Part shown: positions 324 to 35,725 of the stretch, one piece after another | How positions within the stretch are numbered: position 1 is the first letter of the stretch | Layout of the letters: every line of letters begins with the position of its first letter | Source: a virus | DNA length: 35,725 nucleotides | Reading direction: 5' to 3' (one strand) | Virus record (IMG/VR): IMGVR_UViG_3300045988_127927 | Location: 1-35,725 of that record | Program-made: the position numbers and the translations under genes | The notes under the pieces: model-generated | Told to the model about the DNA's origin: nothing | The model's input: the letters and a program-made list of their open reading frames with translations, nothing else | Database searches by the model: none

Positions 324-3300
324 GTGGAAGTCTTGGCAGCAATCGAGCTAGCGACTAGTTATCTTACGCTTGCGGTGGAGACTTCCACCCTCTCAAAGCA
401 GGTTTCTAAGGCTCTTAGCGGTGTAGGCTCTATCGGTGCCCGCGCCGGTCGTGAGATTGGCGACGGCATGGCTAATGGCTTTAGCCAGACTAAAAACATT
501 GACATTGAGGGTCTACGCGCGAAGGTCGAGAGTGCAGACCGCGCCCTAGCACAGAGCGCGGATATCATGGCACGAAAGCGCGCGGCCGCCGCGTCCACCA
601 TCAAGCAGGCGCAGGAAAACGTTAGCGCGGCCATGTCTAAAACCGAGGCGGCTAACGCGCGTCTGGGTGCTGCTGAGAGCCGCCTAAACTCGCTTCGTGC
701 TAACGGCGGTAGTGCTGATGCTATCGCGCGTGCTGAGGCGGCGGTGCATAGCGCCCGTGCTAGTGTTTCGACGGCGACGAGCGGGATGTACGGCGCAGAA
801 CAGCGCCTTGTTTCGGCACGCGAGAAGTACACTTCTATTTCGCGCACCGCCGTTTCTCAGACTACCGCGCACGCGCAGGCTTTGAAGGCGGCTAAGGCTG
901 ACTTGCGCGAGGCTGAGGCGGCGACCGGCGCGCTGGGGGGTGCTACCGAGAAGGCAACCGGGCGTTTTGCTGGTTTCCGTAACGCTTTCTCCAAATCATT
1001 TAGCGGTCTACGCGGTACCGTAGACAAGAACATGCAAGAAGCGTTTAGCGGTGTAGCGGCGCAGGCTGAGCACGCCGGGCGTGAGAGCAGCGGCAGGTTT
1101 AAGAGCGCGTTTACTGGTACTATTGCCGCCGCCGGTGGTCTCTTTGCGGGCGTTGGTATTTTCAACGCGGGTAAGGACGCACTGTTTAAGGCGGGCGACC
1201 TTGAGCAGTCCGTAGGTGCGGTTGATGCCGTGTTCAAGGGCTCCGCTGACAAGATGCACGCTTACGCTGACGCGGCATCGGATACCGTCGGTATCTCCAA
1301 GAACGCCTACAACGAACTGGCTAGCGTGCTTGGTGCAAGCTTGAAGAACGGCGGTACGAGCATTGACGAACTAGGCGACAAGACTAACAGCCTTATCGGT
1401 CTTGGTGCTGATTTGGCGTCCCTGTACGGCGGCACCACGAAAGATGCAATTGATGCTATCAGCTCCGCTCTTCGTGGTGAAATGGATCCTATCGAGCGCT
1501 ACGGTATTTCATTGAATGATGCCGCGCTTACCGCTAAGGGTCTAGAGATGGGCATCACTAAGACCGGCGGTGCGTTCACGACTCAGCAGAAGCAGCTAAT
1601 CACTCAAGCGCTGTTGTTCGAGCAGTCTAAGGATGCTCAGGGCAACTTTGCGAAGGAGTCGGATACTTTCGCCCATAAAATGCAGGTGGCTAACGCGCGC
1701 CTGGAGGACATGAGTACTAAAATTGGTGGTGCTATTCTTCCTGTCGTCGTTAAAATTATGGACGTTTTCGGTAAGGCTCTTTCCCCGGTTTTGACTGAGG
1801 TTAGCGGCGGCTTTACCGCATTTGGTGCGGCCTGGGAAAAGTTCGACGGCGATATTACGAGCGCGGGTTTTCCTGGTTTCATGGAGGGCGCGGCATTTGT
1901 CGCGCGTAATGTCTGGGAAACGATTAAAAACGCTTTCCAGAATGGAATTATTCCGCTATTCCGTGACCATGTAATGCCCGTACTAGATACCGTCGGTACG
2001 GCGTTCATGGACTTTTTCAAGGGCATTTACGGTTTTCAGGATTACGGCGAACCGGTCAGTGTTTTTAATCAGATTGGCGGCGCTATCCGTGATATCGGTA
2101 AGTGGCTTGTCGAAAATGTGGGCTTGTGGGCACCTTTTGCCGCCGGTATTACGGCAGCGTTTACCGCATGGAGCACTTATCAGAAAACTATTACCCTGGT
2201 TAAGGTTGCGCAGGAGGCGCTAAACAAGGCATCGGCGGCATTTAGCAAGACTAACGTTATTTTGGTCGTTATTGGCTTGATTGTCGGCGGCCTGATTTTG
2301 GCGTATAACAAAATCGGCTGGTTTAAGGATTTTGTAGACAATTCAATTAAGGTTATCGGCGACGTTTTTGTTTGGCTGTATGAAAATGCGGTAAAGCCCG
2401 CGTTTGAATGGATCGTCGAGGCAATTAAGGGCGTAATTGATTGGTGGAATACCTCTTTTGTGCCCGCTTTCAATGAAGGCGTAAAAATTGTTGGCGACGT
2501 TTTCAACTGGCTGTACGAGAACATTGTTAAGCCGGTATTCGAGGGCGTAAAGGGCGCAATTGAAGGCGTTGTTGATTGGTGGAACACTTCGTTTGTTCCG
2601 GCGTTTGACGCGGGCGTTAGGGCTGTCGGTGCTGTTTTTGAGTGGCTTTACAATAATGTTGTTCAGCCGGTTTGGACGGCTATTAAAACCGTTATCGCGG
2701 TCGTTATTGCTGTTATCCTTACCATTTTCGACGGTTTGAAGGCTGTCGTTGAGAATGTTCTAGCACCTATTTTCAAGTGGCTGTACGAGAATATTATTAT
2801 TCCGGTCTGGAATGGAATTAAGGATATTATTTCTGGTTTCCTGGACTGGTTTAATAACACGCTTGTGCCCGCCGTGAAAACCGTTATTGATATTCTGGGT
2901 AATATCTTTAATTGGCTCCGTGATAACGTCGTCATGCCCGTGTGGAATGGCATTAAGGGCATTATTGACGGCGTTGTTCAGTGGTTCAATAACACCGTAG
3001 CGCCGCTATTCCAGACCGCATCTAATATTATTGGCGACATTTTTAAATGGCTGTGGAATAACGTTGTTTCCCCGGTTTGGGAAAACATTCGCCGTGGTAT
3101 TGATGTTGTCGTGCAGTGGTACAGCGGCGTTGTGCAGCCGCTTATTAAGTCGGTTACGGACGCTATCGGCTCTGTATTCCGCTGGCTGTACGATAATGTT
3201 GTTAAGCCCGTCTGGGATTCGATTCAGAATGTCATCAGGGCGTTTACCGACTACTTTAACGGCGTTATTTTCCCGGCGATTAAGGCTACTATTGACGCTA

Positions 3301-4814
3301 TTTCTTCGGCGTTCCGCTGGTTGCTGGATAACGTGGTACGCCCGGTATGGGACGGTATTCAGAGCGTCATTAGGGGCGTGTGGGAAAACGGAATTAAGCC
3401 CGTATTTGACGCGCTTACTAATTTCGTTACCCGTACTATTCCCGACGCTTTCCGTAACGCGGTGGACGCTATCGGTCGTTTCTGGAATGGCATTGTTGAT
3501 GTTGTGAAGCAGCCGGTTAAGTGGGTTTTGCAGACCGTCGTTAATGATGGTTTTATCCGTAACTTTAATAACCTTGCAGGCACTTTCAACATTGGTAAAA
3601 TTCCTGAGATTAACCTCTCAGGTTGGGCAACCGGTGGTTATACCGGTAAGGGCGGCAAATATGAGCCCGCCGGTATTGTCCACCGTGACGAGTTCGTCAT
3701 TAGGAAAGAGGCGCGGCAGCGTTTCGAGAGGGAAAATCCCGGCGTTCTGGATCATCTGAACCGTACCGGTGAACTACCGGCGGCCTCGCTGGTTGGTGCT
3801 AGTGCGCCGCGTGTCGGTGAATCCTACGCCGCGCCGTTCGGTGTGCGTGATAGCCGCGTGCCCGGCTTCGATATCGGCGGCGTGATATCCGACGCTATTA
3901 ACACTGGTGTAAATGTTGTAAATGCTGGTGTAAATGCTGTACGTGAGCTTGCAGGCACGGCGGCGGGTAAGGTTCTGGACGTGGCTATCACCCCGGCTAA
4001 GAACCTCATTGCTGGTATCGCTGGTTTGTTCCCCGGCTACGCGGGCGACGTGATGCGCGGCGGCGGTGACGCGATTCTCGACGGCGCTAAGAACTGGGTT
4101 GTTGAGAAGCTCAAGGGCAAGGACGAGCACGGCAGGGACGCGGCAAGCGCTCACGCCGTGGCCCCGTCCGGCGGCGGCGTGATGCGCTGGCGTGATACCG
4201 TCGTGCAGGCGCTGGGTATCGCCGGTTTGCCCGCTACCGACGCTTATATCAATGCGTGGTTGAGCCAGATTCAGAGTGAATCTAACGGTGACCCGAACGT
4301 TACACAGAGCGGGTATGTCGATATCAACACGATTACCGGCGATTTGGCTATGGGTCTGGTTCAGGTTATCGGTGCGACGTTCGCCGCGTTCCGTGACCCG
4401 TCGTTGCCTAATAACCGTTTGGATCCGCTGGCTAACCTGGTTGCGGGTATGCGCTACGCTACCGCGCGCTACGGTTTCGGCGGGCAGTTGGGGGTTATCG
4501 GTCATGGCCACGGCTATAGCGGCGGCGGTCTAGTGAATGGTTCTACCGCGTTTAAAAACGCGATTGTTCCTTCTCTTTATGACCGAGGCGGTAAAATTAA
4601 GCAGGGTGTGCAGGTGATTGACCATCGCCGCGCTACCCCTGATTACGTGCTGACCGATAGCCAGTGGAAGACCATGTATTCTATTGCGAACCACACGGCA
4701 CAGAGCACGACTAACGCCGGTATTACTATCGGCAACGTCTACGGTCTGGATGCCGTGGACGTGGCAGAGGAGATTATGAAGAGGAAGCGTCGAGAGGAGC
4801 TACTGAGTGCCTGA
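324..4814 (+). CDS. tape measure protein (1496 aa) with C-terminal lytic transglycosylase (SLT-like) domain
   Basis: It is the largest ORF and sits after the chaperone pair. The N-terminus is Ala-rich coiled coil and there are hydrophobic central segments and W-rich 45-aa repeats. The motif WLSQIQSESNGDPNVTQSGYVDINTITGDLAMGLVQV (about nt 4250-4370) resembles an SLT/lysozyme-like catalytic region. Confidence 0.95.
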   Translation: MEVLAAIELATSYLTLAVETSTLSKQVSKALSGVGSIGARAGREIGDGMANGFSQTKNIDIEGLRAKVESADRALAQSADIMARKRAAAASTIKQAQENVSAAMSKTEAANARLGAAESRLNSLRANGGSADAIARAEAAVHSARASVSTATSGMYGAEQRLVSAREKYTSISRTAVSQTTAHAQALKAAKADLREAEAATGALGGATEKATGRFAGFRNAFSKSFSGLRGTVDKNMQEAFSGVAAQAEHAGRESSGRFKSAFTGTIAAAGGLFAGVGIFNAGKDALFKAGDLEQSVGAVDAVFKGSADKMHAYADAASDTVGISKNAYNELASVLGASLKNGGTSIDELGDKTNSLIGLGADLASLYGGTTKDAIDAISSALRGEMDPIERYGISLNDAALTAKGLEMGITKTGGAFTTQQKQLITQALLFEQSKDAQGNFAKESDTFAHKMQVANARLEDMSTKIGGAILPVVVKIMDVFGKALSPVLTEVSGGFTAFGAAWEKFDGDITSAGFPGFMEGAAFVARNVWETIKNAFQNGIIPLFRDHVMPVLDTVGTAFMDFFKGIYGFQDYGEPVSVFNQIGGAIRDIGKWLVENVGLWAPFAAGITAAFTAWSTYQKTITLVKVAQEALNKASAAFSKTNVILVVIGLIVGGLILAYNKIGWFKDFVDNSIKVIGDVFVWLYENAVKPAFEWIVEAIKGVIDWWNTSFVPAFNEGVKIVGDVFNWLYENIVKPVFEGVKGAIEGVVDWWNTSFVPAFDAGVRAVGAVFEWLYNNVVQPVWTAIKTVIAVVIAVILTIFDGLKAVVENVLAPIFKWLYENIIIPVWNGIKDIISGFLDWFNNTLVPAVKTVIDILGNIFNWLRDNVVMPVWNGIKGIIDGVVQWFNNTVAPLFQTASNIIGDIFKWLWNNVVSPVWENIRRGIDVVVQWYSGVVQPLIKSVTDAIGSVFRWLYDNVVKPVWDSIQNVIRAFTDYFNGVIFPAIKATIDAISSAFRWLLDNVVRPVWDGIQSVIRGVWENGIKPVFDALTNFVTRTIPDAFRNAVDAIGRFWNGIVDVVKQPVKWVLQTVVNDGFIRNFNNLAGTFNIGKIPEINLSGWATGGYTGKGGKYEPAGIVHRDEFVIRKEARQRFERENPGVLDHLNRTGELPAASLVGASAPRVGESYAAPFGVRDSRVPGFDIGGVISDAINTGVNVVNAGVNAVRELAGTAAGKVLDVAITPAKNLIAGIAGLFPGYAGDVMRGGGDAILDGAKNWVVEKLKGKDEHGRDAASAHAVAPSGGGVMRWRDTVVQALGIAGLPATDAYINAWLSQIQSESNGDPNVTQSGYVDINTITGDLAMGLVQVIGATFAAFRDPSLPNNRLDPLANLVAGMRYATARYGFGGQLGVIGHGHGYSGGGLVNGSTAFKNAIVPSLYDRGGKIKQGVQVIDHRRATPDYVLTDSQWKTMYSIANHTAQSTTNAGITIGNVYGLDAVDVAEEIMKRKRREELLSA
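2346..3425 (+). repeat. eight exactly phased 135-nt (45-aa) tandem repeats inside the tape measure gene
   Basis: Units start at 2346, 2481, 2616, 2751, 2886, 3021, 3156 and 3291. Each has the pattern x-G-D/N-hFxWLY(E/D)N-VV-P-VW..I...I..VV.W(W/F)N..V.P with Trp at codon 10. A further degenerate unit follows to about 3500. Confidence 0.85.
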
Positions 4815-14792: not shown

Positions 14793-15221
14793 TTAGCGCT
14801 TCCTTTCATTGTAGATTTGGGTTAGGTGGATGTGTACGCCGGGCGCGTCGCCGTACTCTTTGACCGCTTCTAGCTTGTTGCATCGCGCGTCATCTTCGAT
14901 AATGCCGCCGCTGGTAAGCGAGTCAAAGACCGCGCGGGTGAGCTTGTCAATGTCCGGTTTTACCGCGTGTATAGGGCCTAGCGTGCCTTGGAATAGCGCG
15001 CCGCTCTTAGGCTCTGTGAACACGAACCGTAGCGAGGCTTGGAACGCTCCGACGATTAGCGGCGCTCCGACCGCCTGGCTGGTCTTGAGGTGGTGCTTTC
15101 GCATGGTTTCGCGCCATTCTTTTGTTTTGGGGTTTGCTTCGACGGCGCGCCCCCGGTAGACGGTCTTTGATCCTTGCGGCACGGGACCAGGTTTACGGGC
15201 TATGAATGTTTTGTAGTGCAT
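14793..15221 (-). CDS. rusA: RusA-like Holliday junction resolvase
   Basis: KPDIDKLTRAVFDSLTSGGIIEDDARC matches the RusA catalytic Asp-rich block. RBS GAAAGG lies upstream. Confidence 0.8.
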   Translation of the reverse strand: MHYKTFIARKPGPVPQGSKTVYRGRAVEANPKTKEWRETMRKHHLKTSQAVGAPLIVGAFQASLRFVFTEPKSGALFQGTLGPIHAVKPDIDKLTRAVFDSLTSGGIIEDDARCNKLEAVKEYGDAPGVHIHLTQIYNERKR

Positions 15222-16630: not shown

Positions 16631-17086
16631 ATGAATAAGCAGGAATGCGCAACGTTCTACGCACAGGCGGCAAAGGTTGATAGCCGCCTCCCTGATCGTG
16701 AATTTGATGAGTTCGACGCGTGGGAAATGCTTCTAGCGGATATTCCCCCTAAGTTCGCGCCTATGATTTTCCGTGAGATTTACCGCCGCGTTCAGGTTCA
16801 GCAGCTACAGCCGGGGCATATTGTCGAGGCGTGGGAAACCGTTCGTAAGGCGGTGAACGCCGCTATTGCCCGGTGCCTGTCTTTCGAGAAGCGCACGCGC
16901 GAGCTGGACGTGTCAGACCGTGAAGATGCCACGAAATTTAACGAGATTGTGGAAGCGCATAACGCGGCTGTGGATTCGCTACCGGGTGAGGTAGCGGCGG
17001 CCAATGGGTTTACTCACAAGGAGCTGGTACCTGTACCGGGTGAACGTGTGCCCGCGCCCGCCCCGGCGTGGTTTAAGTCACTGTAA
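16631..17086 (+). CDS. hypothetical protein (151 aa)
   Basis: AAGGAG RBS and compact spacing. Confidence 0.65.
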   Translation: MNKQECATFYAQAAKVDSRLPDREFDEFDAWEMLLADIPPKFAPMIFREIYRRVQVQQLQPGHIVEAWETVRKAVNAAIARCLSFEKRTRELDVSDREDATKFNEIVEAHNAAVDSLPGEVAAANGFTHKELVPVPGERVPAPAPAWFKSL

Positions 17087-17103
17087 AAAAGTTAGATTCT
17101 GGC

Positions 17104-17161
17104 TTGCGTTGCGCCCCCTGAAAGGTTTATACTATAAATGTAAGGCAACGAAGACCTTACA
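17104..17161 (+). promoter_or_regulatory. promoter copy P2 (TTGCGT-18-TATACT) plus 5' leader hairpin
   Basis: -35 at 17104-17109, -10 at 17128-17133, hairpin TGTAAGG-9 nt-CCTTACA at 17139-17161, then AGAAACCCAAACCGAAAGGAA. Confidence 0.7.
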
Positions 17162-17188
17162 GAAACCCAAACCGAAAGGAAGCCAGAA

Positions 17189-17599
17189 ATGTTCGGCATC
17201 ACCCGCAATCCCGCAGACGAACGCTACATCACCGCAGACCTTGGTGGCGACACCACCGCCGTAAAGCTTCTGGTACGACCCGACTACATCGCAGGCACTC
17301 ATTACCTGATGATTGACCACAAGAGCGCCATGAAGCTGGCACACCCCAAGAACCCGGGCAAGTGGATCCAGGAACTCCGACAGGGACTACGGCAGCACAA
17401 CGGCGAGGCTCAGCTCTGGAGCACCACCCCCACCGCCGGAAAGGGCGCGCTAGTCACCGCCTGGAAGACCGAGGACGCAATTAACTATCTCGACCTTGAT
17501 AACGTGATCCGCGCTATCGAAGACCGCGCCCCCGCCTCGCACAAGCCTAACGCCGCTATCCTCCGTGACCTCAAGCGTGAGATTGTAGGCGGCATCTAA
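17189..17599 (+). CDS. hypothetical protein (136 aa), first gene of cassette P2
   Basis: The ATG lies 8 nt after GAAAGGAAG. Confidence 0.7.
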   Translation: MFGITRNPADERYITADLGGDTTAVKLLVRPDYIAGTHYLMIDHKSAMKLAHPKNPGKWIQELRQGLRQHNGEAQLWSTTPTAGKGALVTAWKTEDAINYLDLDNVIRAIEDRAPASHKPNAAILRDLKREIVGGI

Positions 17600-17624
17600 C
17601 CCCCGCCGGTTACCGGCAACCAAC

Positions 17625-17648
17625 GCCCCGCCCCTCACCGGGCGGGGC
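17625..17648 (+). terminator. GC hairpin GCCCCGCCC-6 nt-GGGCGGGGC (attenuator/terminator-like)
   Basis: 9-bp all-GC-rich stem. Same arms as the hairpins at 21467 and 23321. No U-tract. Confidence 0.5.
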
Positions 17649-17676
17649 ACACAAACCCCAAACCCGAAAGAAGGAC

Positions 17677-17889
17677 ATGATGAAGACACTCATCACCCGC
17701 TACCCGCGAACCATCGGGTACACCGTAATAGCAGCACTACAGCTAACCACATTTTTCGTGGCCATGCTGAATAACCGGCTAGACCCGGCGCACATCTCAA
17801 ACGTGCTTCTCTCCGTAATCGTCGTGTGCTGTGGCTTTGAAATTGACATGCTAAAGCTTGAGAAGAAGGATACCCGCCGTGAAAATTAA
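17677..17889 (+). CDS. small membrane protein (70 aa, two TM)
   Basis: Hydrophobic segments YTVIAALQLTTFFVAML and VLLSVIVVCCGF. RBS GAAAGAAGGA. Confidence 0.65.
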   Translation: MMKTLITRYPRTIGYTVIAALQLTTFFVAMLNNRLDPAHISNVLLSVIVVCCGFEIDMLKLEKKDTRREN

Positions 17890-18793
17890 CACTCTCATGC
17901 GCCGCGCCGTACCCGCGCCCGCTCCCGGCTCCGACGAATGGAAGCGCAAGATTACCGCCTCCAAGGTGGCATCTGTCGTTTGTAAAAGCCCGTGTACTTC
18001 CAAGTTTGCGCTACACGCTGAGATGACCGGCCGCTACGAGGCAGACCCGATTAACCAGGCGGTATTGGAGGCCGGTAATATTCTGGAACCGGCTGTAGCG
18101 GGTTGGTTTCAGCTGCACAACCCCGACGTAGAAGTGCGTGAGTGCAAGAAGCGCAACACTCCCGTATGGTGGGTATCGCGCGATAGTGAAGACTTTGCCG
18201 CTACCCCCGACCGTATCCTAGTAGACCGTGAGACCGGCGAGGTCACCGCGCTACTGGAAATCAAGACCGCGCGCGTCGCCTCCGAATGGGGCGAAGAAGG
18301 TACCGACGAAATCCCCGAGCACTACCGCCTACAAGCGCTTTGGCAGATGAAATGTACCGGCGTAAAGACCGTTATTTTTGCTGTGCTACATGCCGGGCTG
18401 AGGTTCGCTACATACCGCGTCGAGTGGGACGCGGCGGCGGTTGATGAGCTTACGGCGGCGGCGACCGATTTTATGGACGCGGTACGCACCGGGCAAACCC
18501 CTGACTATCGCGAGGAACCCGGCGCGTTCTCGACCTACGAGGTGCTCCGCTATTATTTCCCTGAGTGCAACGGTGAAGCCGTGATGTTGAGTGATGACCT
18601 GGTCTACCGTACCCGCCGCGCTAAGCGCCTAAAGCGATTGGCCGCGCGTGCTGAGGATATCGTCAAGAATGAGCTAACCGCCGTTATGGGCAACGCGAGC
18701 GCGGGCGTTGATTACGCGAACCGTACCGTGGCGCGGCGCTCTCAGAGGAAGACCACTAAAGGTTATTCCCGCCCGTGGGTGACTATCGTCTAG
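17879..18793 (+). CDS. YqaJ/lambda-Exo-like recombination exonuclease (PD-(D/E)XK)
   Basis: GSDEWKRKITASKVASV, AGNILEP and ATPDRILVD...ALLEIKTAR fit the YqaJ viral recombinase family. The start is uncertain: GTG 17879 after GAAGAAGGA, or ATG 17897. Confidence 0.8.
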   Translation: MKINTLMRRAVPAPAPGSDEWKRKITASKVASVVCKSPCTSKFALHAEMTGRYEADPINQAVLEAGNILEPAVAGWFQLHNPDVEVRECKKRNTPVWWVSRDSEDFAATPDRILVDRETGEVTALLEIKTARVASEWGEEGTDEIPEHYRLQALWQMKCTGVKTVIFAVLHAGLRFATYRVEWDAAAVDELTAAATDFMDAVRTGQTPDYREEPGAFSTYEVLRYYFPECNGEAVMLSDDLVYRTRRAKRLKRLAARAEDIVKNELTAVMGNASAGVDYANRTVARRSQRKTTKGYSRPWVTIV

Positions 18794-18842
18794 GCGGCTG
18801 TAGCGGCGCTGGAAAATTTTCTAAATTTTTTCCGGTTTGGGC

Positions 18843-18912
18843 TTGTTTCCCCTCATAAATAGATTTATACTATAAATGTAAGGAAAACAAAGGAACCACC
18901 GGAAACCTTACA
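18843..18912 (+). promoter_or_regulatory. promoter copy P3 (TTGTTT-17-TATACT) plus 5' leader hairpin
   Basis: -35 at 18843-18848, -10 at 18866-18871, hairpin TGTAAGG-22 nt-CCTTACA at 18877-18912. The upstream AT-rich block gctggaaaattttctaaatttt is identical to that of P5. Confidence 0.7.
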
Positions 18913-18937
18913 ACCCAAACCGAAAGGAAACGAAATC

Positions 18938-19309
18938 ATGGAACTCACCGCTAAGGACTTCACCGCACAGCTGGCCGCTAAGGGTTACACCCCCGGTATC
19001 GACTTCGACGTTGATAACGGCGACGAACCGCACACCGTGAAGCTCACTGGCGCGATCACCTTTAACGGCGCAGATGGTTTTATGGACTTCCGCAACGCAG
19101 AGGAATACTACGGCATCACCTGTGCAGAGTATGAAGACCTCGCGTTCTTCTCCAAGACCTACCCGCTTACCGAGGCACAGATTACCGACATCGAAGAAGG
19201 CGGCGAACCCGGCAACGCAGAACAGGAAGAAAAGTTCTTCGACGCATGGCGTGCAGCTCTCGACGGTATCGGTATCGACCTGAACGACATTCCGGTTTCC
19301 AGCCGCTAA
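18938..19309 (+). CDS. highly acidic protein (123 aa), first gene of cassette P3
   Basis: By my count about 26 D/E against about 8 K/R. Strong RBS GAAAGGAAA. Lies between the exonuclease and RecT genes. Confidence 0.75.
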   Translation: MELTAKDFTAQLAAKGYTPGIDFDVDNGDEPHTVKLTGAITFNGADGFMDFRNAEEYYGITCAEYEDLAFFSKTYPLTEAQITDIEEGGEPGNAEQEEKFFDAWRAALDGIGIDLNDIPVSSR

Positions 19310-19336
19310 GCAACGCACATAAGCACCGATAGACCC

Positions 19337-19377
19337 GCCGGGCGGCGGACTCTTCCGAATACCCGCCGCCGCCCGGC
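19337..19377 (+). terminator. GC hairpin (12-bp stem GCCGGGCGGCGG / CCGCCGCCCGGC, 17-nt loop) followed by ATTT
   Basis: Read directly. Located between the acidic gene and recT. Confidence 0.5.
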
Positions 19378-19406
19378 ATTTACCACCACCGAAAGGAACC
19401 TACACC

Positions 19407-20225
19407 GTGGGCACTGAAATTCAGCAATTCACAGGCACCGCTCTACAGGTAAAGAATGATTTTGTAGATCCCATCAAGAACGCGATTACCGGCGCGTTAC
19501 CGCTATTCATGCGTGAAGACTCCGAGGCCTGGATTAGGGGCGCAATTCTGGAGGTTAGCAAGACTCCGCAGCTTGTCCAGTACGCCAAAAACAATTTTCC
19601 AGCATTTGCAGGCACGCTAACCCGTGTCGCCGCGCTGGGTTTACCGCTCAACCGTGACATGGTGTACGTGCTCCCCTTTGCATCGAAACAGGGGATGCAG
19701 GCCAACGTTATCATGGGTTGGCGCGGTGAGCTTGAACTCATTTATCGCGCGGGCAACGTCGAGACCGTCCACCATGAAGAAATCTTTGAGAATGACGGCT
19801 ACGAATGGAAGGACGGCGCCCCCCGCCTTATCGCTCCCGCCCCGGAAGGGCAGCGCGGCAAAATCAAGCACGCCGTAGCATGGGCTGTCTTGAAGAGCGG
19901 CAAAATCAGCCAATACGCGGTTGTGAGTGCCGACCGCATCGCCGCCGCCAAGAAAGCATCACGCGGCTCTAACTCCCCGTCTAGCCCCTGGGTACAGCAC
20001 GAGGTAGCAATGTGGCGCAAAACGGCAATTCATGAGCTGGCGAACTTCGTAGATTCAAGCGTAGAAGAGTGCCGACCGGAACGCCTGGAAGCCATGAAGA
20101 CCCGCGCGGCTCTCGCTTTGGACGTGGAGCGCGAAAAGACCGCGCGCATGGCAGAGGAAAACAGGGCTATGGAACTCAAGATTAAGCTAATGGAACTGGA
20201 ACAGACTAAGAAGGAAGGGGCATAA
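19407..20225 (+). CDS. recT: RecT-family single-strand annealing protein
   Basis: LPLNRDMVYVLPF, ANVIMGWRGELELIYRAGNVETVHHEEIFENDGYEW and the SPW..H...M..KTA block are RecT-like. GTG start after GAAAGGAA. Confidence 0.85.
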   Translation: MGTEIQQFTGTALQVKNDFVDPIKNAITGALPLFMREDSEAWIRGAILEVSKTPQLVQYAKNNFPAFAGTLTRVAALGLPLNRDMVYVLPFASKQGMQANVIMGWRGELELIYRAGNVETVHHEEIFENDGYEWKDGAPRLIAPAPEGQRGKIKHAVAWAVLKSGKISQYAVVSADRIAAAKKASRGSNSPSSPWVQHEVAMWRKTAIHELANFVDSSVEECRPERLEAMKTRAALALDVEREKTARMAEENRAMELKIKLMELEQTKKEGA

Positions 20226-20226
20226 G

Positions 20227-20547
20227 ATGACCCTAAATGCAACCCGTACACACTACATTAACGAGTATGATTACTCACATATCCGCTGGCGCGGCTTCGT
20301 AAAGCGCCTCGCCCTCCGCGCAGCATCTCTAGCCGATTCGCGCGGCGTGCTGAACATTGGGCGTGACAAGTTTTTTAAGGATACTCTAGGCGACGAATAC
20401 AACCCCCGCTACATCTCGCACATCATCACTGACTGTAACCGCATCGAGCGCGTGAGTTTTGCGACCATTGGGCACAGTGCGAGCGCCCGCCTGGTCATTG
20501 TCTTTGATGACGAAAAGATTAGTAAGAGCATGGAAAAGAAGGGCTAG
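20227..20547 (+). CDS. hypothetical protein (106 aa)
   Basis: The ATG lies 1 nt after the recT stop, with AAGGAAGGGG upstream. Confidence 0.65.
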   Translation: MTLNATRTHYINEYDYSHIRWRGFVKRLALRAASLADSRGVLNIGRDKFFKDTLGDEYNPRYISHIITDCNRIERVSFATIGHSASARLVIVFDDEKISKSMEKKG

Positions 20548-20550
20548 AAC

Positions 20551-21099
20551 ATGTCTTCTACCGTAACCGTACTAGGAAATATTGGGGCGGACGCAGAGCG
20601 ACGCGAGACGCAGAACGGCACCCCGTACCTGACTTTCACCGTTGCGGATTCACGCTCTAAATGGGACGCGGCCGCCGGTAAGTATGTCCCGCTAAATACG
20701 ACGTGGCGACGCGTAACCACCTTTAAGGGGTTGGACTATTTGCCCGATCAGCTTGTCAGGGGTGCGACCGTCTACGTATCCGGTAGCGAGGAATTGCGCA
20801 CCTGGGACAAAGAGGACGGGACGAAGGGTTACAGCCTGGATGTTACGGCGCATGTGGTGAAGGTGGTATCAAAGTCCACCGATAGCGGGGCACCCGCGCA
20901 GGTTCAGACTAGCCCGGTTGCCGCGTACCCGGCGAACACCGCCGCCCCGGTTCAGCAGCAGGGATACGCACAGCAGGCGCAGCCTATGCAGGGCGGTTAT
21001 GCACAGCCCGCCGCCGCCGCGCCGCCCGCCGGTTACCAAGCCGCCGCTAACGCATCGAGCGGATGGGGTGGATACGATAACGGGGCGACCCCGTTCTAG
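20551..21099 (+). CDS. ssb: single-stranded DNA-binding protein
   Basis: OB-fold N-terminus VTVLGNIGADAERRETQNGTPYLTFTVA, a Gly/Gln/Ala/Pro-rich linker and a C-terminal ...ATPF tail. Confidence 0.9.
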   Translation: MSSTVTVLGNIGADAERRETQNGTPYLTFTVADSRSKWDAAAGKYVPLNTTWRRVTTFKGLDYLPDQLVRGATVYVSGSEELRTWDKEDGTKGYSLDVTAHVVKVVSKSTDSGAPAQVQTSPVAAYPANTAAPVQQQGYAQQAQPMQGGYAQPAAAAPPAGYQAAANASSGWGGYDNGATPF

Positions 21100-21111
21100 C
21101 CCTAGCCCGCT

Positions 21112-21139
21112 AACCCCCGGTGAGTAATCGCCGGGGGTT
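21112..21139 (+). terminator. hairpin AACCCCCGG-10 nt-CCGGGGGTT after ssb
   Basis: 9-bp stem read directly, followed by TGG (weak U-tract). Confidence 0.5.
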
Positions 21140-21189
21140 TGGCGTACCCGGCGCGGGAAAAATTTTTTTGAAAAATCTTTGATTCTGGC

Positions 21190-21245
21190 TTGCTTTCCAC
21201 CCCACACAAGGTTTATACTATAAATGTAAGGCAAAGAGCCTTACA
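21190..21245 (+). promoter_or_regulatory. promoter copy P4 (TTGCTT-18-TATACT) plus 5' leader hairpin
   Basis: -35 at 21190-21195, -10 at 21214-21219, hairpin TGTAAGGC-5 nt-GCCTTACA at 21225-21245. An AT-rich block lies upstream at 21155-21180. Confidence 0.7.
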
Positions 21246-21271
21246 GAAACCCAAGCCGAAAGGAAACCCCA

Positions 21272-21451
21272 ATGTTGGAGTACTACGAAATTCAGGAATA
21301 CGTTACCGAGGTAGCAGCAGGTAACTACCCGTTCCGAGTAATCGACGCGGTAACCGCCGATATTTACGAACGCGGCGTAGCCGTCGAGATGGAAGACCTC
21401 AAGGCATACCCGCGAACCCGTGAACTTCTCAAGATTCACAACGCGGCCTAA
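21272..21451 (+). CDS. 59-aa acidic protein, first gene of cassette P4 (absent from the ORF track)
   Basis: ATG after CCGAAAGGAAACCCCA. Translation: MLEYYEIQEYVTEVAAGNYPFRVIDAVTADIYERGVAVEMEDLKAYPRTRELLKIHNAA. A gapless alignment gives 20/59 identities to the 23125 ORF. Confidence 0.75.
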   Translation: MLEYYEIQEYVTEVAAGNYPFRVIDAVTADIYERGVAVEMEDLKAYPRTRELLKIHNAA

Positions 21452-21466
21452 CAATCAACCAACTAA

Positions 21467-21489
21467 GCCCCGCCCTAACCGGGCGGGGC
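21467..21489 (+). terminator. GC hairpin GCCCCGCCC-5 nt-GGGCGGGGC
   Basis: Same arms as the hairpins at 17625 and 23321. Confidence 0.5.
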
Positions 21490-21503
21490 ACCCCTAGCAA
21501 ATC

Positions 21504-22079
21504 ATGGCAAATCAGTTTTACAAATCAGAAACATGCTCACAGTGCGGTAACCCCTGGGAAAAACCCGATCTGGTCAATTGCCGCCGGTGCAAACAGTGGG
21601 AACTCAAACGCGCCCGCACCCGCCGCAAAAAGGCAGAGAAAGCGGGTGAGCTAGAGCGCAAGCGCAAAAACAAGGAGTGGGCCGCAACCCATTGCTACAT
21701 TTGCGGTTCGCTTATGGATAATCCAGACCCCAAATGCTACCGGTGCCGCGAACGCATCAAGCGCCGCGAAAAATGGCTAGAACGCCGCGCCGAACGCATG
21801 AAACCGAACGACCTAAACAACCTAGAAGGCGTAAGGAAGTTCCTACAGGCGCGCCGCCGCCGCCTCAACCAAGACCCCCACACCCCCCCATCGAAGGAAT
21901 CGACACATGAAACACCCCATCACCGGGCGACCCCTAACCATCACCGCCGCCGCGCTCGCAACAGTACCGACCGGCTTTTTTCTCGCCGCGCTCATCACCG
22001 GCGGCGGCGTGAACATCGGCAGCTCTATTCTCACCCTCGCTACGTGGTGGGTGGGTGTGCTGATCGTGGCATTGTTTGA
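21504..22079 (+). CDS. zinc-ribbon protein (two CxxC...CxxC pairs), basic; 3' end uncertain
   Basis: Contains CSQCGNPW...CRRCKQW and CYICGSL...CYRCRERI. The last ~57 codons overlap the 21907 gene and read as low-complexity His/Arg sequence. A C7 tract lies at 21883-21889. Confidence 0.55.
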   Translation: MANQFYKSETCSQCGNPWEKPDLVNCRRCKQWELKRARTRRKKAEKAGELERKRKNKEWAATHCYICGSLMDNPDPKCYRCRERIKRREKWLERRAERMKPNDLNNLEGVRKFLQARRRRLNQDPHTPPSKESTHETPHHRATPNHHRRRARNSTDRLFSRRAHHRRRREHRQLYSHPRYVVGGCADRGIV

Positions 22080-22122
22080 GGCCAACCCGCGCGACGCGCG
22101 AACCAACCGAGAGGAACACTAA
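21907..22122 (+). CDS. small membrane protein (71 aa, two TM)
   Basis: ATG after CGAAGGAA. Hydrophobic segments LTITAAALATVPTGFFLAALI and ILTLATWWVGVLIVALF. Confidence 0.7.
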   Translation: MKHPITGRPLTITAAALATVPTGFFLAALITGGGVNIGSSILTLATWWVGVLIVALFEANPRDARTNREEH

Positions 22123-23040: not shown

Positions 23041-23098
23041 TTGCTTTGCACACCCCAATAGGTTTATACTATAAATGTAAGGCAAAGGAGGTCTTACA
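23041..23098 (+). promoter_or_regulatory. promoter copy P5 (TTGCTT-18-TATACT) plus 5' leader hairpin
   Basis: -35 at 23041-23046, -10 at 23065-23070, hairpin TGTAAG(G)-loop-(T)CTTACA at 23076-23098. The palindrome GAAAATTTTC lies upstream at 23011-23020. Confidence 0.7.
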
Positions 23099-23124
23099 GA
23101 AACCCAAACCGAAAGGAGCTAGCA

Positions 23125-23304
23125 ATGCTGGCACGTCACGAAATTCTCGAATCCATCACCACCGCAGCATACGGCGAAATCTCGACCGCCGTTCTGGAAG
23201 CCGCGGCAACCGAGATTTGGGAAAATAACAGCTTCGAGACTATGGCAGATTTTGAAGCCTACGATAAGACCTGGGAAATCGTCGCAAAGCACGACGCTAA
23301 GTAA
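23125..23304 (+). CDS. 59-aa acidic protein, first gene of cassette P5 (absent from the ORF track); paralogue of 21272-21451
   Basis: ATG after CCGAAAGGAGCTAGCA. Translation: MLARHEILESITTAAYGEISTAVLEAAATEIWENNSFETMADFEAYDKTWEIVAKHDAK. Confidence 0.75.
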   Translation: MLARHEILESITTAAYGEISTAVLEAAATEIWENNSFETMADFEAYDKTWEIVAKHDAK

Positions 23305-23320
23305 CCCCTAACCACATAAC

Positions 23321-23347
23321 GCCCCGCCCGCTAACCCCGGGCGGGGC
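23321..23347 (+). terminator. GC hairpin GCCCCGCCCG-7 nt-CGGGCGGGGC
   Basis: Followed by CACCAAACCCCAAACCCGAAAGGAA, as after the 17625 hairpin. Confidence 0.5.
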
Positions 23348-35584: not shown

Positions 35585-35725
35585 TAGCCTGTCTCAATTC
35601 ATTTAAAGAGCATGAAGACGAGGTACGCGCCCGGCTTCTTGAACTGGGTTTGAATTGGGACGGGAAAAGAACCGGTAAAAACAATTGGGCTAATATTCAC
35701 GCGGCCATTAAAACCGCGCCGCCCG
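35581..35725 (+). CDS. start of the -1 frame extension of the chaperone (gpT part), continuing to 300 after the junction
   Basis: GTA ATA GCC TGT ... AAA AGA ACC GGT contains no stops and is in phase with 1-300. Confidence 0.8.
35671..35725. repeat. 55-bp exact terminal duplication, copy 2
   Basis: Identical to 1-55. Confidence 0.95.

Follow-up and report, generated by a model that had tools for sequence, protein, structure and literature searches.

A strongly acidic protein in an exchangeable slot beside the RecT gene of a probable Rothia phage, with DNA mimicry as a possible function

The DNA considered here, IMG/VR record IMGVR_UViG_3300045988_127927 (positions 1 to 35,725, hereafter the window), is from a siphovirus-type actinophage of about 36 kb. 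Between the genes for a YqaJ/RecE-like exonuclease (Exo) and the single-strand annealing protein RecT, it carries an open reading frame (ORF; 18938-19309, + strand) that encodes a strongly acidic protein of 123 amino acids (aa). The favoured reading is that this protein is a non-enzymatic binder whose acidic surface blocks a basic, probably nucleic acid-binding, site on a host protein, making it an accessory counter-defence or host-takeover factor and possibly a DNA mimic. This reading is held tentatively, at slightly less than an even chance. The protein is neither a homologue of Gam nor a third subunit integral to the Exo/RecT module.

A first-pass annotation of the window had proposed an inhibitor of a host DNA-end or DNA-binding enzyme. 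The extreme and conserved charge, the small size and the variable slot in which the gene resides speak for that proposal, but the protein is not Gam-like, and the argument from its position next to recombination genes has been weakened. The family to which the protein belongs is uncharacterised, narrow in distribution and without a recognisable fold relative.

The acidic protein and its family

The gene starts with an ATG codon, 10 nt downstream of a GAAAGGA ribosome-binding site (RBS; 18922-18928, + strand) that was read from the sequence and is kept in all four of the cassettes described in the next section. The product contains 26 Asp and Glu residues and 8 Lys and Arg residues, precisely the figures that the first-pass annotation had given as approximate, for a net charge of −18 and an isoelectric point (pI) of 4.05. 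Both acidic runs listed at that time are present, DFDVDNGDE at residues 22-30 and EEGGEPGNAEQEE at residues 86-98, and the location of the ORF between the YqaJ-like exonuclease and RecT was borne out by matches of the two neighbours in Pfam and PHROGs. Among 52 non-overlapping ORFs of the window, which have a median pI of 6.65, the 123-aa protein ranks first in acidity per residue (−0.146); the runner-up, leaving aside the gene's own antisense ORF, is at −0.089.

That antisense ORF (18908-19318) is longer than the gene itself. In 10 orthologous DNA sequences, the ratio of nonsynonymous to synonymous substitution rates (dN/dS) is 0.23 in the sense (+) frame versus 1.2 in the antisense frame; the + frame is thus the real gene, and the antisense ORF is ruled out as the true one. 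The ratio indicates purifying selection on the acidic ORF. Its small product lacks a hydrophobic N-terminal segment, as judged from the sequence by eye, and is probably cytoplasmic, with a compact α/β structure in the predicted model.

The charge is a stable property of the protein. Net charges range from −13 to −23 across 27 homologues of the acidic clade, and 20 positions are acidic in at least 80% of them. D26, D46, D50, E55, E66 and E97 are acidic in every member of the clade, and D24 in 96%. Outside this clade there is a single sister clade (P0047 and P0058-P0061), made up of proteins of 127 aa with 37-45% identity. At the same 20 positions, the sister clade has acidic residues at eight, neutral residues at six and Arg or Lys at the remaining six. 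The reversed positions are 24, 26 and 29 (strand β1 and the hairpin tip), 46 (the β2-β3 turn) and 97 and 98 (the start of α5), and the sister clade has IDLRLRYGRTRGL where the acidic clade has IDFDVDNGDEPHT.

A structural model gives these positions a context. The first AlphaFold2 model, based on 28 close homologues, had a predicted local distance difference test score (pLDDT) of 75 and yielded no Foldseek match in PDB or BFVD (E ≤ 0.001). A second model, to which the divergent sister clade had been added, reached a pLDDT of 92 and a predicted template modelling (TM) score (pTM) of 0.82. It is a mixed α/β structure of five strands and five helices, with the predicted order α1 (residues 5-14), β1 (17-27), β2 (33-44), β3 (47-50), α2 (51-58), α3 (63-66), β4 (71-76), α4 (79-86), α5 (94-109) and β5 (120-122). 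On β1, D22, D24 and D26 alternate with the hydrophobic residues I21, F23 and V25, so that in the model the three aspartates should line one exposed face that runs into D29 and E30. Further conserved acidic residues, E95, E97 and E98, are found at the start of α5. The charge change between the clades is clustered in one region rather than scattered, which is the pattern expected of a partner-specific interaction surface, and points to one surface patch whose polarity would set specificity.

Neither sequence nor structure searches connect the protein to a described family. There was no match for it in Pfam or PHROGs (E ≤ 0.1 for both), NCBIfam or PADLOC, and the same four libraries returned nothing for a member of the sister clade or for two further proteins introduced below, a 91-aa alternative cargo and a 107-aa acidic neighbour. 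The best hit of the family profile to PDB sequences, at E = 0.26, was judged spurious. The earlier remark that no sequence similarity to Gam could be seen therefore holds in Pfam, PHROGs and the PDB profile search. Structure prediction had been suggested as a check in the first-pass annotation; it did deliver a confident model, but one to which no solved structure could be matched. The best Foldseek hit of the second model in PDB had E = 0.28, with TM scores of at most 0.36 and no Gam, gp5.9 or Abc2 chain among the matches. Low-ranked likenesses to a double-stranded RNA-binding domain, Rad52, T7 Gp1.2 and BAZ2A were dropped (TM < 0.36). The absence of a fold match in spite of a confident model is typical of small phage-encoded inhibitors. 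Two short motifs were also considered and set aside: “DLNDIPV”, near the C-terminus, as a mimic of the C-terminal tail of single-stranded DNA-binding protein (SSB), since its Pro is not conserved and the motif does not lie at the C-terminus itself; and “ALDGIGIDL” as an ArdA antirestriction motif, since in ArdA that motif forms the dimer interface and the 123-aa protein is not homologous to ArdA.

Homologues of the acidic protein form 45 clusters with 65-97% identity, nearly all of them 122-129 aa long. When 1.84 billion representative proteins were searched exhaustively with a profile, only the family itself and the sister clade were retrieved. Against 50,697 phage records, no match was found either by megablast with positions 17000-21500 or by tblastn with the 123-aa protein (E ≤ 1). 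The family nevertheless spans three kinds of mobile elements: phages of about 36 kb, phages of about 51 kb, in which the sister-clade gene is the second gene of an early block, and elements represented by contigs of 158-292 kb (L001, L004, L005, L033, L034 and L035). In the last, homologues with 76-80% identity occupy a conserved position, with flanks that differ from those in the window and with no Exo, RecT or SSB within 10 kb. From the patchy distribution across slots and kinds of elements, the acidic gene appears to be a horizontally exchanged accessory gene.

The large contigs, which may be a jumbo phage, a megaplasmid or another kind of element, have 53% G+C and contain a repeat of about 210 bp, in both orientations, in long intergenic regions. 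A very acidic ORF of 107 aa lies 54 bp upstream of the homologue (L001, 9623-9946). About 40 ORFs near the homologue gave no match in Pfam or PHROGs, apart from TnpB/IS605 OrfB transposase genes.

Four expression slots with exchangeable cargo

The 20-mer TTTATACTATAAATGTAAGG is found in four copies on the + strand of the window (at 17126, 18864, 21212 and 23063), where none would be expected. When aligned, the four copies have in common an AT-rich upstream tract, a −35-like TTGxxT box, a spacer of 17-18 nt and a TATACT sequence, as well as the inverted repeat TGTAAGG/CCTTACA downstream and the GAAAGGA RBS. Conservation and layout suggest that these repeats are promoters. Each repeat is followed by exactly one small ORF (136, 123, 59 and 59 aa, respectively), then by a GC-rich hairpin and then by the RBS of the next gene. 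The GC-rich hairpins of the four slots have 9-12 bp and no U tract (z = −3.2 to −3.6).

The acidic gene resides in slot 2. Its promoter-like element (18808-18883, + strand) consists of the AT-rich tract GGAAAATTTTCTAAATTTT, TTGTTT at 18843-18848, a 17-nt spacer and TATACT at 18866-18871, with the invariant core at 18864-18883. Directly after the −10-like box comes the inverted repeat TGTAAGG...CCTTACA (18877-18912, + strand), which is kept in the four cassettes and predicted to form a hairpin at the 5′ end of the transcript; equivalent 5′ stem-loops at 17139-17161 and 21225-21245 were picked up in a stem-loop scan. On the other side of the gene is a GC hairpin (19337-19377, + strand) of 12 bp, CCGGGCGGCGG...CCGCCGCCCGG, with a 17-nt loop and no U tract (−33.6 kcal/mol, z = −3.2).

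The other three slots are built in the same way and are also on the + strand. Slot 1 (17126-17648) has its core at 17126-17145, followed by a cargo ORF of 136 aa without an assigned function (17189-17599) and a GC hairpin (17625-17648). Slot 3 (21212-21489) has its core at 21212-21231, a 59-aa cargo ORF at 21272-21451 and a hairpin at 21467-21489; the corresponding features of slot 4 (23063-23347) are at 23063-23082, 23125-23304 (59 aa) and 23321-23347. The cargos of slots 3 and 4 are acidic paralogues of 59 aa each, and at the DNA level the initial 77 nt of the repeat show 71% identity. Searches with the other cargo ORFs, made in Pfam and PHROGs only (the 136-aa ORF excepted), found no match.

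The window was compared with ten related phage contigs of about 36 kb from IMG/VR, which share RecT at 92-97% identity. The four promoter positions are constant in all ten, whereas the first ORF behind each is swapped or missing. In slot 1, the usual 136-aa ORF is replaced by one of 120 aa in L024, and the slot is empty in L011. Slot 2 holds the acidic gene in eight of the ten and an unrelated, non-acidic ORF of 91 aa in two (L024 and L028), which are otherwise near-identical phages with RecT 94% identical. The 59-aa ORF usual in slot 3 is missing from L011 and L028, where the slot is empty. Slot 4 usually has the 59-aa paralogue, but a 140-aa ORF in L012 and L015 and a 202-aa ORF in L017. With no cargo in the slot, the promoter element directly precedes the core gene. 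In slot 2, the stretch from a few nucleotides past the stop codon through the hairpin to the start of RecT is conserved with either the acidic or the 91-aa cargo. Since position and sequence are fixed regardless of the cargo, promoter and hairpin are part of the phage backbone, with the ORF alone being exchanged. Judged by these comparisons, the four layouts of promoter, cargo ORF and hairpin are plug-in slots for accessory genes.

The surroundings of the acidic gene vary accordingly. Four phages have the order Exo, acidic gene, RecT; another four have Exo, a 119-aa hydrophobic protein, acidic gene, RecT; and in two the order is Exo, 119-aa protein, 91-aa gene, RecT. L015 (IMGVR_UViG_3300045988_119263, 1584-2173) has lost the 136-aa gene, a 70-aa gene and Exo, leaving the acidic gene and a RecT without Exo. 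Since the deletion begins and ends at promoter repeats 1 and 2, recombination between these repeats is its probable origin. The acidic gene adjoins RecT in 9 of 11 phages, counting the window and its ten relatives. In L018, the allele of the acidic gene is 70% identical to that of the window, compared with 94% for RecT. In a more distant phage from saliva, OR148987 (RecT 42% identical), only 22 bp separate Exo from RecT, and nothing lies in between.

The 119-aa hydrophobic protein, which the window lacks, is encoded immediately behind Exo in L012, L014, L017, L018, L024 and L028 (for example, L014 3319-3678), appears to have four membrane-spanning segments when its sequence is read by eye, and has no match in Pfam, PHROGs or PADLOC.

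According to the first-pass annotation, the acidic gene was the only gene of a cassette with its own promoter. The repeated element is real, and a single small ORF does precede the hairpin. However, the element is not private to the gene, as it also fronts core genes in relatives without cargo, and the ORF need not be the only gene of its unit. No further promoter-like element was found between the acidic ORF and RecT or before 21212. The next promoter repeat being at 21212, the slot 2 promoter most likely also serves RecT, a 106-aa gene and SSB.

The arrangement recalls phage morons, which are likewise single ORFs between conserved genes with a promoter-like element before and a hairpin after them, patchy in related phages and common to unrelated elements (PMC3594210; bioRxiv 10.1101/2023.04.06.535777). 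The acidic gene is inserted between genes that are adjacent elsewhere, as seen in OR148987 and in the varying slot content of the ten relatives, and it shows patchiness and horizontal exchange in its occurrence in three kinds of elements and in the L018 allele. Unlike in morons, the promoter and hairpin do not travel with the gene, but are backbone elements that would serve downstream core genes. Classical expression of a moron from a prophage also seems not to apply, since neither an integrase gene in the window nor a prophage copy in reference genomes could be identified.

Possible functions of the acidic protein

In the favoured reading, the acidic gene is carried in a fixed expression slot within the early or replication region, with the promoter-like element, 5′ hairpin and RBS on one side and the GC hairpin and the RBS of RecT on the other. 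The slot promoter would also transcribe RecT, the 106-aa gene and SSB by reading through the GC hairpin, and the acidic gene, as the promoter-proximal cistron, would probably be the most highly expressed one. The protein might then bind stoichiometrically, through the acidic surface formed by the β1 face, the hairpin tip and the start of α5, to a basic site on a host protein. Genes for anti-defence functions concentrate in variable accessory slots of this kind (bioRxiv 10.1101/2023.04.06.535777).

DNA mimicry is a possible form of such binding. DNA mimics are united by function, their folds being very diverse, and are characterised by small size and high acidity (PMC9836394; PMC3902945), and the 123-aa protein is both small and rich in Asp and Glu, with a correspondingly low pI. 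As Foldseek found no significant match in PDB, it has no structural kinship to any solved DNA mimic, whether Gam, gp5.9, Abc2, Ocr, ArdA, Ugi or another. Because the folds of mimics are so diverse, this dissimilarity rules out those families, but not mimicry as a mechanism.

Several observations weigh against the favoured reading. Small phage proteins are often acidic, so acidity alone is weak evidence, and in the ~51-kb phage and the large elements, neighbouring genes without assigned function are acidic as well. The sister clade has a net charge of 0 and a pI of 6.8; the fold is thus independent of negative charge, and the ancestral role of the family need not be DNA mimicry. The known anti-RecBCD mimics are helical dimers, as opposed to the α/β model obtained here. 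A generic sigma-70 scan did not call the promoter-like repeats. Finally, adjacency to RecT in 9 of 11 phages makes a role related to recombination possible.

The most obvious comparison is with λ Gam and T7 gp5.9. Like these, the protein is small, highly acidic and presumably non-enzymatic, and is encoded beside genes for an exonuclease and an annealing protein. A functional analogue would block host AdnAB or RecBCD and thereby spare phage DNA ends and Exo/RecT intermediates. Such a role would suit a gene located downstream of Exo and upstream of RecT in most relatives, and one that stays beside RecT even in the Exo-less L015. Phages λ and P22 keep their anti-RecBCD genes in recombination modules (PMC9836394; bioRxiv 10.1101/2023.04.06.535777), and the pI of 4.05 equals that of gp5.9 (4.0; PMC9836394). 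However, Gam and gp5.9 are helical dimers (PMC9836394), while the 123-aa protein has no sequence or fold likeness to Gam, gp5.9 or Abc2: it has no detectable homology to the Gam family (PF06064) in Pfam or PHROGs, and its predicted fold is α/β and not predominantly helical, so the Gam-like identity suggested at first is not upheld. It differs from them, too, in being swappable within a phage group and in occurring away from recombination genes. The argument that position made it the third partner of a Red-type module loses force from the replacement by a non-acidic 91-aa gene in two of ten relatives that are otherwise near-identical, from the Exo-less L015, from OR148987, from homologues in large elements and ~51-kb phages without Exo or RecT nearby and from the neutral sister clade. 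The three sister slots hold unrelated cargo beside unrelated core genes, so adjacency to RecT may merely mark the location of a slot. A Gam analogue is for these reasons considered improbable. Much the same must be said of a DNA mimic of the Ocr/ArdA type, directed against restriction or BREX, whose early promoter would have it expressed first so that it could guard the incoming DNA. Here the likeness to Ocr, ArdA and small ArdA lies in charge density, small size and carriage by several kinds of mobile elements, which probably infect the same host, and the promoter-proximal position of the gene would be appropriate. Ocr and ArdA act through surface carboxylates (PMC2731889; PMC3439906; PMC7261183). 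Yet there is no ArdA or Ocr match in Pfam and no structural match in PDB or BFVD, and the gene is neither at the genome end nor clearly injected first, but lies in the replication/recombination block after a replication-initiator gene. An anti-restriction role is accordingly rated as quite unlikely.

Somewhat less credence still is given to a recombination accessory factor that would bind RecT, phage SSB or the 106-aa protein and modulate annealing or loading. The precedent is P22, where small accessory genes (Arf, Abc1/Abc2) are similarly interleaved with core recombinase genes and where Arf is a small acidic protein, proposed as an accessory recombination factor, whose mechanism is not established (PMC9836394). 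No homology to these P22 proteins was detected. Probable co-transcription with RecT, the 106-aa gene and SSB, and retention with RecT in most of the group, would fit this role; the exchange for an unrelated gene while RecT remains 94% identical, the empty Exo-RecT junction of OR148987 and the large elements that carry the gene without RecT or SSB within 10 kb do not. A last alternative, unlikely but to be taken more seriously than the three preceding ones, is that the acidity is incidental and that the accessory role of the protein has nothing to do with DNA-binding proteins; it could lie, for instance, in superinfection exclusion, in competition between phages or in modulating transcription or metabolism. 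No function is assigned to any cargo gene of the four slots, alternates included, and both the neutral sister clade and the many acidic neighbours of unassigned function in other elements agree with this view. It is less easily reconciled with the strong conservation of the acidic positions within the clade and with the clustering of the charge reversals in one region.

An acidic binder of a basic host site therefore remains the favoured reading, and it can be extended, though doubtfully, into a more far-reaching proposal. The protein would then belong to an undescribed fold family common to Rothia-type phages and giant uncharacterised elements, in which one patch (β1-β2 hairpin, β2-β3 turn and start of α5) serves as a polarity switch. 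In its acidic form, the scaffold would represent a structurally new kind of DNA mimic, one able to disable a DNA-end nuclease or defence system of actinobacteria; in its Arg/Lys form, it would bind an acidic target or nucleic acid; and the four slots would be a dedicated plug-in system for counter-defence genes.

Genomic setting, host and significance

Exo (17858-18793, + strand) matches Pfam PF09588 (3.6e-16) and the RecE-like phrog_434 (3.1e-57), with GTG 17879 or ATG 17897 as its probable true start. It is 88-93% identical in the relatives and closes the operon that has the promoter repeat at 17126 at its head. RecT (19407-20225, + strand; PF03837, 3.5e-22; phrog_148, 1.4e-38) is the first core gene downstream of slot 2. 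Directly behind it are a gene for a 106-aa protein without assigned function (20227-20547, + strand) and SSB (20551-21099, + strand; PF00436, 4.3e-16). With spacings of 1 and 3 nt, these three genes probably form one transcription unit. A RusA-like Holliday-junction resolvase is encoded away from this block (14793-15221, − strand).

The window has 54.8% G+C, and its ends (1-55 and 35671-35725) are identical over 55 bp, leaving 35,670 bp of unique sequence. It is thus a complete genome, either circularly assembled or terminally redundant. The longest ORF (324-4814, 1496 aa), the presumed tape-measure protein, holds a tandem repeat (2421-3235) of a 135-bp (45-aa) unit in at least five to six diverged copies. 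A zinc-ribbon-like ORF of 191 aa (21504-22079) matches the relatives in two frames, with residues 1-129 in one and about 125-191 in the other, and stops at 134 aa in L011 and L028. The copy in the window may have undergone a frameshift or loss of a stop codon, so that it now runs across the beginning of the ORF that follows (21907-22122).

The terminase and endolysin are nearest to those of phages of Arthrobacter, Glutamicibacter and Microbacterium. Among the close endolysin homologues listed, the only bacterial names are Rothia mucilaginosa (63% identity) and uncultured Rothia. The related phage record OR148987 gives saliva as its source and Homo sapiens as its host. Two scans of 185,579 reference genomes for prophages, one with the family profile and one with RecT, found none, so the host assignment comes solely from the endolysin relatives and the likeness to Micrococcaceae phages; these point to Rothia as the probable host. 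The phage itself is probably virulent, no integrase gene having been identified in the window.

As a kind, small acidic accessory proteins in variable slots of phages are familiar. More unusual are the slots in which the ORF alone is exchanged, the charge-reversed sister clade and the presence of the gene in very large elements. Short of experiments, the protein is one more uncharacterised acidic phage protein. Should it indeed inhibit a nuclease or a defence system of the host, it would count as an early example of such an inhibitor for the oral Actinomycetota, to which Rothia belongs, and would bring a new fold to the class of DNA mimics. It might also aid Exo/RecT recombineering in actinobacteria in the practical way that Gam does in E. 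coli. For mapping the functional surface, the pair of acidic and basic clades amounts to a natural mutagenesis experiment, and the fixed slots with their exchange of ORFs alone provide a simple rule for locating accessory, and probably counter-defence, genes in this group of phages.

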